A DNA stretch of 25,436 bases. Origin: Candidatus Asgardarchaeum abyssi. GTDB lineage: Archaea; Asgardarchaeota; Asgardarchaeia; Asgardarchaeales; Asgardarchaeaceae. The stretch's first letter is position 1. Every line of letters starts with the position of its first letter. Position numbers and translations under genes: made by a program. The stretch covers positions 3,233 to 28,668 of the forward strand of contig JBECUL010000028.1 of assembly GCA_040225955.1 (NCBI GenBank), read 5' to 3'. Shown in pieces: positions 6,451 to 14,151 of the stretch. The notes beneath the pieces were generated by a model. That model saw only the letters and a program-made list of their open reading frames with translations. It did no database searches and was not told the DNA's origin.

Positions 6451-6483
6451 CAGCCTCCTCTAACTCTTCAATGCTCCATGGGA
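6422..6483 (-). pseudogene. 3' remnant of the probable cognate antitoxin overlapping the vapC start
   Basis: A different frame reads IPWSIEELEEAGEKFVRKRT* and overlaps the vapC 5' end, as in coupled vapBC pairs. Upstream of about 6483 the DNA is instead P1B-ATPase coding sequence on the other strand. Confidence 0.5.
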
Positions 6484-6484
6484 T

Positions 6485-7425
6485 TTTCTTGATGCTATGA
6501 GCAAAGCAACAATTGTTGCCTTTGACAAAACAGGAACATTGGCAAAAGGAGTTTTTAGAGTTACTCAAATAATTGTGAAAAACGGTTTTGGTTGAAAAAG
6601 AGATTTTAGAGTTCGCAGCATTAGCTGAAATATACTCAAATCATCCAATTGCAAGAGCAATAAGAGATGCTTATAAAGGGGAGATTGATAAGAGTTTAGC
6701 TAAGGAATATGAAGAGATAGCTGGACACGGTGTTAGAGCGAAAAATAAATGGGAGAGAAATAATAATCGGAAATGATAGACTTCTGCATAAATTTGACAT
6801 AGAGCACAATACATGTTACGTAAAAGGGACTGTAGTTCATGCCGTCGTCGATAGAAAATATGCAGGGTATATAATAATATCGGATGAGATAAAAGAAGAT
6901 GCTCTAAAGACCATAAGAGAACTCAAAAGGCTTGGTATTAAAAGAATAATGATGCTTACAGGCGATAATAAAGAAGCTGCGGAGCAAATAGCTAAGCAAG
7001 TAGACATTGATGAATTTTATGCCGAGCTTTTACCAGAAGATAAAGTTAAGATAATTGAAACTCTTGAAAAGAAAAAGTTCAAGGGAGATGATGCAATTAT
7101 TTCTGTTGGCGACGGCATAAATGATGCTCCTATTATTGCAAGGGCGGATATTGGAGTTGCAATGGGTGCTCTGGGAGGCGATGCTGCTATAGAGACAGCT
7201 GATGTGGTTATAATGGATGATGCTCTTTTAAAACTACCTTTGGGTATTAGGATTGCAAGGAAAACACGAAATATCGTATGGCAAAATATAATTCTTGCTT
7301 TGGGTGTTAAATTACTTTTCCTAAGTCTTGGAATTATAGGACAAGCAACAATGTGAGAGGCTGTGTTTGCTGATATTGGTGTGGCTCTAATAGCCGTCTT
7401 TAATGCTATGCGTATCTTAAAATAA
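6485..7425 (+). pseudogene. cadA: Heavy-metal (Cd/Zn, P1B-type) translocating ATPase, 5'-truncated and multiply disrupted
   Basis: FLDAMSKATIVAFDKTGTL begins at 6485; SNHPIA, MLTGD and VGDGINDAP follow. Frameshifts near 6590 and 6741. In-frame TGA (7354-7356) in ATM*EAVFADIGV where the family has Trp. Natural stop at 7423-7425. Confidence 0.9.
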
Positions 7426-8199: not shown

Positions 8200-11199
8200 T
8201 TAAATGAATCTCCAGTGCTTTTTCAGCCAAATTTTATATGACTCCAGTAAGAGAATTGGAAACCAGCCGAGTACAAGAGCAATTATCCAATCAATCCATG
8301 TAAGTTGTATTACCTCTAAGTTAATTCCCATTGCTTGTATTAGGATCAATTGTGTTTCTGGTACATACATTAATATGAGATGTGCTAGAGGGACTAACAA
8401 GATTAAAGGCCATGTGATCCAGTAATTATCTTCCTTCAATATCTTGTGAATAGGTTTGTTAAGCCTTCTCAGTGAGACTACTAGGGTGCACTCCGCTACA
8501 AACGCAACGGTGTGTAACATTGTACGTGCCTTTGCTTGAGCCCAACTCACTGGATCATCTACACTAACTTGAAATCTTGGAACATAACCTGCTTTATTAA
8601 AGTCAAAAACTGGAATAATTCCATGATATGTTGCAAAATATGCAATAGACATTGAAAGTGCCAACGAGAGGGAGAATATCATCAATGCATTTCTTAGAGG
8701 AATATTGAAAATACCCTCCGTATTTCTCGGCTTTTCTTTCATAACATCTCTACTAAGTCTATCTATGATTAGTGCAAATGGAGGCAATGAGTGAGCTGTC
8801 ATAAATATATATATTTGCTGCCATGTATTCAACAAGTAGAATCCTGGGATGAGTGAAGATCCGAAATACACTAAAGCCTCAGCAAAGTTTACTGCAATAT
8901 AAAAGAAGATTATAGCACGTATCTTTTGGAAGAGCCCTCTTCCCTCACGAATACCTACTACAATAGAGGTAAACGAATCATCAGCTATGATCATGTCTGC
9001 TGCTTGTTTTGCCACGTCAGTTCCAGAAATGCCCATTGCTATACCTACATCAGCCATAGAGATTGCTAATGCGTCATTTACGCCATCTCCTGTCATAGCA
9101 ACAACTTGATCTCGCTTCTTATATCGTTCAATAATTATTTTCTTATGCTCTGGAGAAACTCTCGCGAAAACTGTAGTTCTCAGGAACTCATCATCGGTTA
9201 GGTATGGAATCTTGCGTCCTTCCACAGCTAAATCATTCTCACTAGCAATTCCTACTTGCATTGCAATGCTTTTTGCAGTTTCTACACTATCACCTGTTAT
9301 CATTATCGGCTTTATCCCTGCGCTTTTTGCCTCAAAAACAGAGTCTCGAACACCTTCTCTTGGAGGGTCGATTATTGCAACAAAACCTAAGTATATCATA
9401 TCGCTCTCGATAACTTCTCTCTCATTATCACCTTTTGGTGGTAGCGAATCCATATACTTAAATGAAAACGAGATCACTCTATAACCCTCTGAAGCAAAAA
9501 GTCTCGCTCTCTCCCTAATATGTTCCCTTTTATTTTCATCTAAAATTTCTATGTCAGCCACTTTGTCTTTTACAATGTAGTTACACTTGGGTAATAATAC
9601 CTCAGTAGCTCCTTTTGTAAATACGACATATCTACCGTTTTCTTTATCCAGAAAAACTTTTGTCATACGTTTTAATTTTGAGTCGAATGGATAATTGCGA
9701 ACCAGCTGAAATCTATTCTTATAAATTTCTGGATCAAGTTTTGACTTATAAAATAGAACTAAAATAGAAGCGTCTGTGGTGTCTCCAACCGCTTTATAAG
9801 CAATCTGCTCTCTTTTCTTATCTGGTCCCTTAACCTTTTCTTTAGTAATTGAACTATCGTTGTTAAGATAACCTGAAGCGAGAAGGTATTCAAGAGGCGT
9901 ATACTGCTCTATTCTTACTTCGCCATCCCCTAGGGTTTCAGGTTCTTTTGTTATAATTTCTCTTAGATTTGGGTTTCCATCTAACTTAACTGATAAAATT
10001 TTACCTGAGGGCTCAAATCCAACGCCTGTGACACCATACAAGGCTCCATCAGAAGATTGAAATCTTGGAATCCAGACCCACTTTACAGTCATTTCATTCT
10101 TTGTTATTGTTCCAGTCTTATCTGAGCAGACCACTGAAACTCTACCAAGGCTTTCAACAGAGTTCAAGTCTCTTATTATAACTTGATGTTTAGCCATAGC
10201 CAAAACGCCAGTTAGTAGTATAATTGTGGTTAGCAAAGGAATATTAATGGGCATGATACTCATGGCTGTGATTAAGCATCTGACTATCTCTTTTATTACC
10301 AGCTTTGTGTTAAAAATGCCATTTACGAAAATAAGATTGTTTGTATAAAGGAGAAACATATTATATGTAATTGCAATACTGAGATATATTACAACAGCGA
10401 GTCCAAGATATTTAGCAAGTCTATTAACTTTCTGACGTAATGGTATCTCACCAGTACTAAGTTCCTCCAAATCCTTTGAGATTTTTCCAATTTCAGTTTG
10501 TCTTCCTGTCTTTACTACTAGTGCTGTCGCCGAACCTGCTGTTACATAAGTTCCTAAGAAAACCATGTTCTTTCTGCGAGAAAGTGGAGTGTCTTTATCT
10601 AAGGGAACATCGTGTTCAAATTTCTCTACTTCTTCTGATTCTCCTGTAAGCGGAGCTTCATTCACTCTTAAGCTTGATGCGCTAATGATTCTTGCGTCTG
10701 CTGGAACCCTATCTCCTTGATCTAGTTTTATTATATCTCCTGGAACTATTTGCTCTGAGGGTATTTCTATTATCTTGCCCTCTCTAATCACTTTACTCTT
10801 GGGAGCGGAGAGTCGTTGAAGTGCTTCAAGCTTAGTTTGAGCTCTTGCTTGCTGAACAATAGCCAGGGCTGCATTGACTGCTATTACTGATAACCATTCA
10901 ATGACCTGCCCCCAAATCTCTGGTAAAATTAGAAATGCAAAAACTGCTAGGATAGTACTAATTATTAAATAGATATTTATAAGCCAGTTTAGAAGAGGGG
11001 CAATATATACCTTAAAAAGACTAGGTTTGATTTTCGGAATTACGTTCGGACCAAAAATAGCAAGACGTCTTTCTACTTCTTTTTGGTCTAACCCTCTTTC
11101 GATATCTGTTTTTAGCCGTTTTATAAGTTCTTCTAAAGGTAATGTATACGTTTCTACTTCACTCAATTCGAGTTCTTTTTCACCTTCCATGCTGTACAT
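8200..11199 (-). CDS. P-type ATPase with a P2A (Ca2+-ATPase)-like scaffold and atypical transport site
   Basis: LTGES, CSDKTGT, FDSKLKRM, KGATE, DPPR, MITGD, FARVSPEHK and TGDGVND motifs; about 10 TM; TM4 reads MPINIP instead of IPEGLP. Confidence 0.93.
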   Translation of the reverse strand: MYSMEGEKELELSEVETYTLPLEELIKRLKTDIERGLDQKEVERRLAIFGPNVIPKIKPSLFKVYIAPLLNWLINIYLIISTILAVFAFLILPEIWGQVIEWLSVIAVNAALAIVQQARAQTKLEALQRLSAPKSKVIREGKIIEIPSEQIVPGDIIKLDQGDRVPADARIISASSLRVNEAPLTGESEEVEKFEHDVPLDKDTPLSRRKNMVFLGTYVTAGSATALVVKTGRQTEIGKISKDLEELSTGEIPLRQKVNRLAKYLGLAVVIYLSIAITYNMFLLYTNNLIFVNGIFNTKLVIKEIVRCLITAMSIMPINIPLLTTIILLTGVLAMAKHQVIIRDLNSVESLGRVSVVCSDKTGTITKNEMTVKWVWIPRFQSSDGALYGVTGVGFEPSGKILSVKLDGNPNLREIITKEPETLGDGEVRIEQYTPLEYLLASGYLNNDSSITKEKVKGPDKKREQIAYKAVGDTTDASILVLFYKSKLDPEIYKNRFQLVRNYPFDSKLKRMTKVFLDKENGRYVVFTKGATEVLLPKCNYIVKDKVADIEILDENKREHIRERARLFASEGYRVISFSFKYMDSLPPKGDNEREVIESDMIYLGFVAIIDPPREGVRDSVFEAKSAGIKPIMITGDSVETAKSIAMQVGIASENDLAVEGRKIPYLTDDEFLRTTVFARVSPEHKKIIIERYKKRDQVVAMTGDGVNDALAISMADVGIAMGISGTDVAKQAADMIIADDSFTSIVVGIREGRGLFQKIRAIIFFYIAVNFAEALVYFGSSLIPGFYLLNTWQQIYIFMTAHSLPPFALIIDRLSRDVMKEKPRNTEGIFNIPLRNALMIFSLSLALSMSIAYFATYHGIIPVFDFNKAGYVPRFQVSVDDPVSWAQAKARTMLHTVAFVAECTLVVSLRRLNKPIHKILKEDNYWITWPLILLVPLAHLILMYVPETQLILIQAMGINLEVIQLTWIDWIIALVLGWFPILLLESYKIWLKKHWRFI

Positions 11200-11458: not shown

Positions 11459-11881
11459 CTACCGATAATCATAAGTTGAATAACCAATGATTTCTTTCTC
11501 AACAGTTTTTATAATTCCCAAACTAATTTTTGCTGAAACATAAATTTTCCATTTACACCAAGCGTTGACACCGTAATATGAACTAGGAATGTTTTCAGGA
11601 ATCTTTATGGAGAGTGTGTATTTCTTTGTTTCTCCAGCCTTTAATTTAATATTTTCTGCAATGTGCTCAATATACTCATAAAGAACTAGAATTTTTGATG
11701 ATGTCCTGTAAAGTTCCTCATAGGGACATTTATAAGTCGCCCTGCTGAATTCTTCAACTCTAAAAGTGGCAGTTAAATCCTTAATAAATACATCTTCGCT
11801 AGCCGTAATAGATAGCAAGATATGTATAATCTCTTGTGTAAAATACTTTTCTTTATCAGTTTCTAGTAAAATATTCATCAT
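11459..11881 (-). CDS. Single-domain arrestin-N / SpoOM-like beta-sandwich protein
   Basis: N-terminal ILLETDKEKY..QE.I and LKAGETKKYTLSIKIPENIPSSYYG...KWKIYVSA resemble the arrestin-clan LxxGxxxYxFxFxLPxxLPxSFxG pattern. Confidence 0.65.
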   Translation of the reverse strand: MMNILLETDKEKYFTQEIIHILLSITASEDVFIKDLTATFRVEEFSRATYKCPYEELYRTSSKILVLYEYIEHIAENIKLKAGETKKYTLSIKIPENIPSSYYGVNAWCKWKIYVSAKISLGIIKTVEKEIIGYSTYDYR

Positions 11882-12114: not shown

Positions 12115-12879
12115 TCAAATTGTAAACAAGACTTGGATCGTTGATATCATAAGCATTCCAAAAAATAAGCTAATAATCGCGATATGTTCCTCTCCATGCT
12201 TTAGTGACAATGGAAGCAGCTCATCGAAACTTATGAATATCATTATACCAGCAACAAAAGCTAACGTTACACTGAGCAAGAAATCATTAACAAAAGGATA
12301 GAGGACCAAAAAGCCTATTATTGCACCTACTGGTTCTGCAATTCCTGAAAGAAACGACCAGAGAAAAGCTTTTTTTCTCTCTCCTGTTGCATAATATATT
12401 GGGAATGCTACTGATACTCCTTCTGGAATATTATGTAAGGCAATTGCAACCAAGAGTAATAAACCTAAATTTATATCTTTTAGCGCTCCAAAAAATGCGA
12501 CAAGTCCTTCTGGGAAATTATGAATAGCTATACCAAGGGCAACTAACAAGCTAGTTCTACCCAACTTTTCGTATTTCTCTTCAAAATCCTCAGGTGGATG
12601 TTCTTCTTTATACTCATGTGGAATAAAAAAATCCAAAACTGCTATTGCGAGAATGCCAATGAAGAAAGTAATATTTGCAAAAAGAAAACCAGTATCTATA
12701 ATCGCCGTAAATAGTAATTCCATGAATGAGATATATATCATAACACCCGCAGAAAAACCTATAAATATTGATAAATGCACTCGCTTTAAATTCTTTATAA
12801 AAAGGACAATTAAACTACCAGCTCCTGTCGAAATTCCAGCGATGAATGAAAAAATAAACGCGATTATATATGCTTCCAT
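12115..12879 (-). CDS. zupT: ZIP family zinc/divalent metal transporter ZupT
   Basis: GFSAGVMIYISF, HNFPEG, HNIPEG, SGIAEPVG and DELLP motifs; GGTGA RBS before ATG 12879. Confidence 0.93.
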   Translation of the reverse strand: MEAYIIAFIFSFIAGISTGAGSLIVLFIKNLKRVHLSIFIGFSAGVMIYISFMELLFTAIIDTGFLFANITFFIGILAIAVLDFFIPHEYKEEHPPEDFEEKYEKLGRTSLLVALGIAIHNFPEGLVAFFGALKDINLGLLLLVAIALHNIPEGVSVAFPIYYATGERKKAFLWSFLSGIAEPVGAIIGFLVLYPFVNDFLLSVTLAFVAGIMIFISFDELLPLSLKHGEEHIAIISLFFGMLMISTIQVLFTI

Positions 12880-12992
12880 AATAATCACCTATGCCTCATA
12901 AACCTCTATCTTAACTTCTTTAAGTTTTCTGAGGATTTAAGGAATGTGATACTTAATAAAAATTAGGAAAAATAAGTTTCCTCATAACACTT

Positions 12993-13336: not shown

Positions 13337-13873
13337 TTAAGTTAAATCTCGCTGCTCAGCAATTCTTTTTACAAGATCATTAAATGTTTTTGCTACATTC
13401 TCTCCAGTTTTAGCACTTGTTTCTATAAAAGGAATATCGTATGTAGTAGCAAGATCTTTCCCCTCATCAAAGTTGACTGCTCTTTTTGATTCTAAATCCT
13501 TTTTATTGGCAACCAAAAATACTGGGACTTCACCACAGTTCTTATCTACTTCCCCCAGCCAGAATGGAACATTTTTAAAGGATTTTCGATTAGTTATGTC
13601 ATAGCATACTAATGCTCCAGATGCACCCTTATAATATAGACTTCTGAGATAGTTAAACTTCTCCTGCCCCCCTGTATCCCATATATCCAAAATTATAGTT
13701 TTATCCTTTTCTTCAATCACTTTCCTAAGAAGATTTATTCCGGGTGTTGATTCATAAGTCTCGCTAAAATAATCTTTAACGTATCTTACCGCTAAAGCAG
13801 TCTTTCCAACAGAGATATCTCCTACAATTATAACCTTGAAAATATGCATAGATTTTTTCTCGAAATCATCCAT
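13337..13873 (-). CDS. Rab-like small GTPase (Ras superfamily)
   Basis: G1 GDISVGKT, G2 YEST, G3 WDTGGQE, G4 NKKD, G5 ETSAK; Rab-like YYKGA and CYDIT; no C-terminal Cys prenylation motif; GGTGA RBS before ATG 13873. Confidence 0.93.
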   Translation of the reverse strand: MDDFEKKSMHIFKVIIVGDISVGKTALAVRYVKDYFSETYESTPGINLLRKVIEEKDKTIILDIWDTGGQEKFNYLRSLYYKGASGALVCYDITNRKSFKNVPFWLGEVDKNCGEVPVFLVANKKDLESKRAVNFDEGKDLATTYDIPFIETSAKTGENVAKTFNDLVKRIAEQRDLT

Positions 13874-14151
13874 TGAAATCACCAGACTTTTGGGTTATTA
13901 ATAGTGATCAAAATTGTGAACAGAGTATTAACATGATCATATATCTAAATTTTAGCTAGGTGTAACATTTCTATTATCCTCTATATAATATTTTACAACT
14001 TAAGTTTTTACTTTTACTCTTTTGAATAGACTCTTGAAATATTCTTAAATCAAATGTGTCAGTAAAGAGTAAGAGTATATGTAGAGATTTAATAAAAATA
14101 GAATATGAAAACGAGTTTCTATAAATAAATAGAAAATAAAAAGAGAGGATA

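Follow-up and report, generated by a model that had tools for sequence, protein, structure and literature searches.

The DNA analysed here (the window) is a stretch of 25,436 nt from Candidatus Asgardarchaeum abyssi, an archaeon of the phylum Asgardarchaeota, and it encodes a P-type ATPase that databases would place among the Ca2+ pumps. The classes of P-type pumps are defined by their transport site. The site of this protein is rewritten at the positions that hold Ca2+ in SERCA, and the protein belongs to an apparently undescribed subfamily, real, conserved and P2-derived, whose transport site is of a new kind. This is a well-bounded candidate subfamily, and its combination of a hydrophobic gate in transmembrane helix 4 (TM4) with a Glu-His pair in TM5 and TM6 is unlike the site chemistry of described pumps.

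The reading frame of the pump (Table 1) is uninterrupted by stops and holds every hallmark of the P-type superfamily, namely DKTGT, the A-domain Glu motif, the N-domain Lys, the P-domain GDGxND and the unwound TM4 proline. The five Pfam domains that make up P2-type pumps are all present, and the score on the superfamily model TIGR01494 is 267 against a cut-off of 62. AlphaFold models the protein with confidence (pLDDT 87) and breaks the helix at the TM4 motif (residues 316-318). An earlier note on this DNA had aligned the site to SERCA by hand, reading PINIP in TM4, Phe, Ala and His in place of N796, T799 and D800, and N768, E771 and E908 as retained. HMMER alignments confirmed this assignment: Ile318 lies on the Glu of the PEAL motif of LMCA1, and against SERCA2 Asn771 and Glu774 fall on the TM5 Asn and Glu, Phe799, Ala802 and His803 on the TM6 Asn, Thr and Asp, and Glu903 on the TM8 Glu.

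The rewritten site is a property of the whole family. No PEGL-type motif occurs in any of the 120 best homologues (47-98% identity, the 98% homologue being labelled Ca. Odinarchaeota), and a profile search of representatives at 50% identity returned about 45 family rows before changing abruptly to canonical PEGLP pumps. Our family statistics refer to 137 near-full-length members, from which two canonical rows (P0240, P0247) were subtracted and whose rows are related rather than independent. The E309 position is occupied by Ile (119 members), Val (12), Phe (3), Trp (2) or Leu (1), and never by Glu. Glu774, the sole ionisable site residue present in every member, is kept in 137/137. His803, which the earlier note had singled out for co-conservation with the hydrophobic E309 position, is found in 127 members and replaced by Gln in the other 10; Asn771 and Asn319 are each present in 121. 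Glu903 is kept in 108 and replaced by Ile in one subclade and by Gln in another. All six of the deepest members have Asn771, Glu774, His803 and Glu903. Across the 137 members the catalytic Asp, the TGE motif and the P-domain residues hardly vary, which bears out the earlier observation that the catalytic motifs are intact and the gene is not obviously decaying.

Comparison with five homologous genes over TM4-6 gave nonsynonymous differences (pN) of 0.11-0.15 and synonymous differences (pS) of 0.74-0.99, so that synonymous sites are saturated, and the site residues are preserved through differing codons. Chance and sequencing error are ruled out by this preservation at synonymous saturation together with the absence of PEGL-type motifs from the best homologues; the family site is under purifying selection. 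One group departs from the pattern as a whole: in the PVSIP subclade (P0072, P0091, P0103 and kin, one of them labelled Bathyarchaeia) Asn771, His803 and Glu903 are lost together, to Ser, Gln and Gln, with a one-residue deletion in TM6, and the motor motifs are retained. This subclade may represent a second rewrite of the site for another substrate.

The descent of the family was examined in quick trees built with the diagnostic motif columns removed. These trees were made without P5 and without eukaryotic P2B-D references; the P4 references came from metagenome contigs, viral contigs having yielded neither P4 nor P5 sequences, and some reference P2 pumps came from a genome-contig scan with the family alignment, whose generic seed patterns retrieved ordinary P2 pumps only. 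The 32 family rows group as a single clade (SH-aLRT 98, and 100 in the smaller tree), which both rooted trees place among the P2 pumps, its exact sister being unsettled. We regard the family as an old clade, derived from P2A and centred on Asgard archaea. In its two deepest branches the E309 position holds Trp, Phe or Val and follows a P2A-like stretch before the TM4 proline, and the TM5 Asn and Glu, the TM6 His and the TM8 Glu are already in place; it is the nested crown that typically has Ile. The top sequence and fold matches of the window pump are likewise P2A. For TM5-10, fold comparison gave Z scores of 19-22 for SERCA and SPCA1, 16.2 for Neo1, 15.8 for ATP8A1 (P4 range 13.5-16.2) and 14.0 for the plant proton pump, and a shape search of the atlas returned generic P2 C-terminal domains only. 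Another odd P-type ATPase was noticed on a Crocosphaera contig (L277), with PNEFP in TM4, divergent TM5 and TM6 and a long branch.

Genomes were surveyed with a model of TM5-10 at E < 1e-40, on which canonical pumps reach only about 1e-4 to 1e-13. The family was detected in 216 of 301 Asgard genomes, and in 71 of the 90 that are of high quality; among the carriers are Atabeyarchaeia, a Heimdallarchaeota genome and Ca. Harpocratesius. The assembly of the window contains no 16S gene, and its placement in Asgard archaea is supported by its kin in the phylum and by the homologue labelled Ca. Odinarchaeota. Several Asgard families had no match in the sample (for example 0/4, 0/6, 0/7 and 0/11 genomes). 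Many Asgard genomes hold two or more copies, frequently in tandem, and Ca. Harpocratesius repetitus has four beside a single canonical pump. The subclade of the window gene also contains proteins labelled Bathyarchaeia, Nitrososphaeria and Dehalogenimonas, and these few copies probably reflect horizontal transfer. Two samples from other archaeal groups gave no matches (0/61 and 0/151), a result of little weight given the small genomes.

What such a site might transport can be approached by analogy with known pumps, from which its geometry, its substrate and the direction of transport are all proposed here. On balance we favour a single-site pump of a small cation other than Ca2+, built on Glu774 and His803. 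With the necessary motifs in place, ATP would be expected to phosphorylate Asp360, and TGES to dephosphorylate it, as in other P-type pumps. Ca2+ site II would be plugged by the hydrophobic residues Ile318 and Phe799, near which Tyr77 and Trp102 should lie by analogy to SERCA. The remaining single site would consist of Glu774 and His803, aided by Asn771, Asn319 and usually Glu903, in which Glu774 could be protonated as the carrier, with His803 providing a built-in counter-charge. The pump would act as a stand-alone protein. P3A proton pumps combine a hydrophobic E309 position, occupied by Ile or Val (PMC4937031), with a TM6 Asp carrier that is tuned by a TM5 Arg (PMC10654040), and the arrangement proposed here would be theirs with the charges swapped.

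Among the candidate ions H+ is our tentative first choice, favoured because TM5 and TM6 here bear the P3A combination with the signs of the charges reversed. A proton carrier also fits better than a multi-ligand metal site, since Glu774 alone is always kept and Glu903, the His and the Asn are each lost in subclades. A monovalent cation (K+, NH4+ or Na+) and a soft divalent metal bound by an Asn-Glu-His-Glu site would each be a less probable cargo than H+, and equally so. Several points weigh against a Glu-His cation pump. The contact between Glu774 and His803 is presumed from the SERCA positions, and we know of no precedent for His as a counter-ion in a P-type pump. The four paralogues of Ca. 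Harpocratesius repetitus, together with changes confined to single subclades, point to more than one substrate. For a fermentative cell, cheaper means of pumping protons exist. The trees do not decide on kinship to P3A: the family does not group with P3A in the best ones, and the approximately unbiased test does not reject the grouping (p-AU 0.20).

The best surviving alternative, which we consider unlikely, is a lipid or bulky organic substrate, as in an archaeal flippase-like protein or a pump of an amine or lipid-linked sugar. Here Ile318 would be a hydrophobic gate, and His803 a built-in cation that lets phosphorylation proceed without a cytosolic ion. The earlier note had leaned this way, suggesting that the protein might be flippase-like, possibly a P2-to-P4 intermediate, and calling Ile at the E309 position the P4 hallmark. 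Ile or Val does occupy this position in most members, and PISIP and PVSIP variants exist, but the hallmark is not exclusive given the P3A residues cited above, which our P3A reference sequences also show, and the deepest branches have Trp, Phe or Val. Other P4 features are absent. The pump has TGES where all 15 P4 references carry DGET. The P4-type TM4 Asn (N359 position) is missing, residues 313-314 being Met-Ser and the motif continuing N-I-P after the Ile, and the TM5 Lys-Asn (K873/N874) and TM6 Asn (N905) of P4 are matched by Val770-Asn771 and Phe799. The site also contains an invariant acid. Our own P4 profile of 29 sequences scored the family no higher than canonical P2A, with medians of 93 and 101 bits for the whole protein, -1.1 and -1.1 for TM4, and 3.1 and 3.2 for TM5-6, respectively. 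The score on the P4 family model TIGR01652 is 120 bits against a cut-off of 431, and a Pfam scan found no phospholipid-ATPase (PhoLip) domains in the window pump. The P4 C-terminal domain PF16212 was above cut-off in 0 of 251 Asgard genomes, the controls, all prokaryotes, likewise giving no match. CDC50 was not found in the genome of the window (93% complete) by a search whose control also matched nowhere, and P4B flippases work without CDC50 (PMC10654040).

Three further observations favour such a substrate: Neo1 scores highest among the P4 folds, the family is centred on Asgard archaea and has expanded, and five of ten annotated loci have glycosylation or lipid genes no more than 8 kb from the pump, one of these loci being operon-like, a count with no control set. 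Against these, the complete site is retained in the bacterium Dehalogenimonas (P0053). Dehalogenimonas lacks archaeal ether lipids. Across 30 neighbourhoods we found no partner gene or operon that recurs between lineages; the glycosylation and metal genes nearby are sporadic, again with no control set. Two local arrangements were seen. A basal member with PWSFP (L314:4693-9954) sits between genes for a GT4 glycosyltransferase and a protein resembling a sugar epimerase, all three on one strand and separated by 72 and 42 bp. In one Asgard family (L249, L254, L257, L259), the pump gene is followed in four of five loci, with little or no gap and without a change of strand, by a gene for a protein of 650-665 amino acids; this protein has an N-terminal membrane anchor and a UFM1-ligase-like match (PF09743, E 1.5e-10).

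More doubtful is a pump of Ca2+, or of Ca2+ and Mn2+, working on a modified site I alone (Asn771, Glu774, His803 and Glu903). Three of the five SERCA site-I side chains are retained, fold and ancestry are P2A, and databases call members Ca2+-transporting ATPases, but those labels are automatic. The single-site Ca2+ pumps SPCA, PMCA and LMCA1 retain site II instead of site I. Both D800 and E309 are lost in the family, His binds Ca2+ poorly, the family can dispense with Glu903, and the pump falls below the cut-offs of all P2A and P2B models. An ordinary PEGLP P2A pump is encoded on another contig of the same genome, and a canonical-type P2 model matched in 273 of the 301 Asgard genomes, so that Ca2+ export is probably handled by other pumps. 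The earlier judgement that this is unlikely to be an ordinary Ca2+ pump is supported.

We give somewhat less credence still to a motor for a separate membrane partner, similar to KdpB and with Glu774 and His803 as a built-in dipole, or to a scaffold that transports nothing. The ionic site is reduced to one pair, several genomes have tandem paralogues, and KdpB offers a precedent for a built-in counter-ion (PMC10654040), but none of the 30 loci shows a conserved neighbour and the gene appears to have been transferred to other phyla singly.

There is, finally, a slim chance that the family is the prokaryotic sister of the eukaryotic P4 pumps, which would have split from its stem after E309 turned hydrophobic, and that it already moves a lipid or other organic substrate in Asgard archaea. 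P4 stands on a branch of 3.7 changes per site whose position shifts between trees. P4 was attached in turn to every branch of a fixed backbone, this time keeping the motif columns; under LG+F+G4 every placement inside the family was rejected (p-AU at most 0.017), and attachment to the family stem was not (0.17). A mixture model gave p-AU 0.098 for crown plus P4 and 0.43 for family plus P4. Of the P4 ancestry raised in the earlier note, placement of P4 within the family thus fails under LG+F+G4, and sisterhood to the whole family stands unrejected. Because the very long P4 branch cannot be placed, we regard descent of P4 from the PINIP crown as unlikely and P4 as sister of the whole family as a low-odds possibility. 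The best-scoring attachment point in two analyses was a set of P2C-like prokaryotic pumps, some from Asgard archaea (L300, L305, L058), which may be long-branch attraction. A decaying or drifted P2A gene, or a sequencing error, which a broken P1B pump 850 bp away might have suggested, is rejected with near certainty by a site that 137 relatives share and keep at synonymous saturation in a family present in 216 of 301 genomes.

Table 1. Features of the pump gene and other genes in the window
Feature	Position	Strand	Remarks
P-type ATPase gene	8200..11199	(-)	999 aa; P2A-like architecture (N-terminal, A, P and N domains; ten membrane helices)
TGES	10636..10647	(-)	aa185-188; A-domain dephosphorylation motif (P4: DGET)
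TM2 Trp102 to Asn109	10873..10896	(-)	Trp102 kept in family crown; Asn109 at the position of SERCA N101 / AHA2 N106 (numbering partly from PMC10654040)
PINIP	10237..10251	(-)	aa317-321; TM4 motif; Ile318 at SERCA E309 position; Asn319 family-specific; 10254-10237 with preceding Met
DKTGT	10108..10122	(-)	aa360-364; phosphorylation motif (Asp360)
KGA		(-)	aa529-531
TGDGVND	9073..9093	(-)	aa703-709; P-domain motif
TM5 Val770-Asn771-x-x-Glu774	8878..8892	(-)	SERCA N768/E771; N771/E774 at 8889-8878; P4-type Lys absent at 770
TM6 stretch	8782..8820	(-)	aa794-806; Phe799 (N796), Ala802 (T799), His803 (D800)
TM8 Glu903	8491..8493	(-)	SERCA E908
P1B ATPase remnant	6460-7420	(+)	Zn/Cd type
140-aa ORF	11459-11881	(-)	just upstream of pump
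ZupT zinc transporter	12115-12888		
Ras/Rab-like small GTPase	13337-13882	(-)	Pfam Ras 190 bits

The P1B remnant consists of a DKTGT piece, an N-domain piece and a C-terminal part in three frames with stops, and lacks its N-terminal half, as would a broken gene or an assembly error. The 140-aa open reading frame (ORF) on the same strand as the pump has a weak Rgp1 match (E 3e-4) and possibly an arrestin-like fold; it was not seen beside other family members. The small GTPase is a typical Asgard eukaryotic-signature protein.

Full-text literature searches, with subscription papers and TCDB outside their scope, found no description of the family. The one Asgard transporter paper lists only a putative Ca2+ ATPase and infers Asgard Ca2+ signalling from P-type annotations (PMC7997004), and a review expects new P-type families only among prokaryotes (PMC10654040). 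About 70% of the genomes sampled from the archaeal group nearest to eukaryotes carry the family, in up to four copies, and its Ca2+-pump database labels may inflate claims on Asgard calcium handling. It also offers a natural test of substrate change on a P2 scaffold. The copies in named Dehalogenimonas species provide an experimental handle.

Comparison with the known classes places the family nearest to P2A (SERCA1/2, SPCA1/PMR1, Listeria LMCA1 and prokaryotic PEGLP pumps), with which it shares the domain layout, TGES, DKTGT, the ten-helix fold and about 27-30% identity. The TM5 Asn and Glu and the TM8 Glu of SERCA (N768, E771, E908) correspond to N771, E774 and E903, the last of these lost in two subclades, and the deepest members keep the P2A-like stretch preceding the TM4 proline. 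The family differs from P2A in its hydrophobic E309 position, in Phe, Ala and His at N796, T799 and D800, in forming a separate clade, and in scoring below curated cut-offs (407 versus 703 bits on TIGR01116 and 442 versus 798 on TIGR01522, both eukaryote-centred models). With P3A (AHA2, Pma1, methanogen P3A) it shares Ile or Val at E309, the second TM4 proline, TGES, the TM2 Asn, a TM5/TM6 pair of opposite charges and the lack of a beta subunit, but it has His for the TM6 Asp, Glu for the TM5 Arg and a long N domain of P2 type, and it scores 332 bits against a cut-off of 615, with the TM fold Z of 14.0 given above. Likeness to P4 (ATP8A1/2, Drs2, Neo1/ATP9) extends to the Ile after the TM4 proline and to PISIP or PVSIP in some members, whereas the second TM4 proline is kept in the family and the site is acidic. 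P5 pumps have a PPxxP motif in TM4 that is absent here, and the score of 227 bits lies below their cut-off of 618. The P6 pump CtpE is likewise a P2-like prokaryotic pump that no longer has the TM6 Asp (PMC10654040), but it retains PEGL, with Ile in TM6, whereas the present family has lost the TM4 Glu and carries His.

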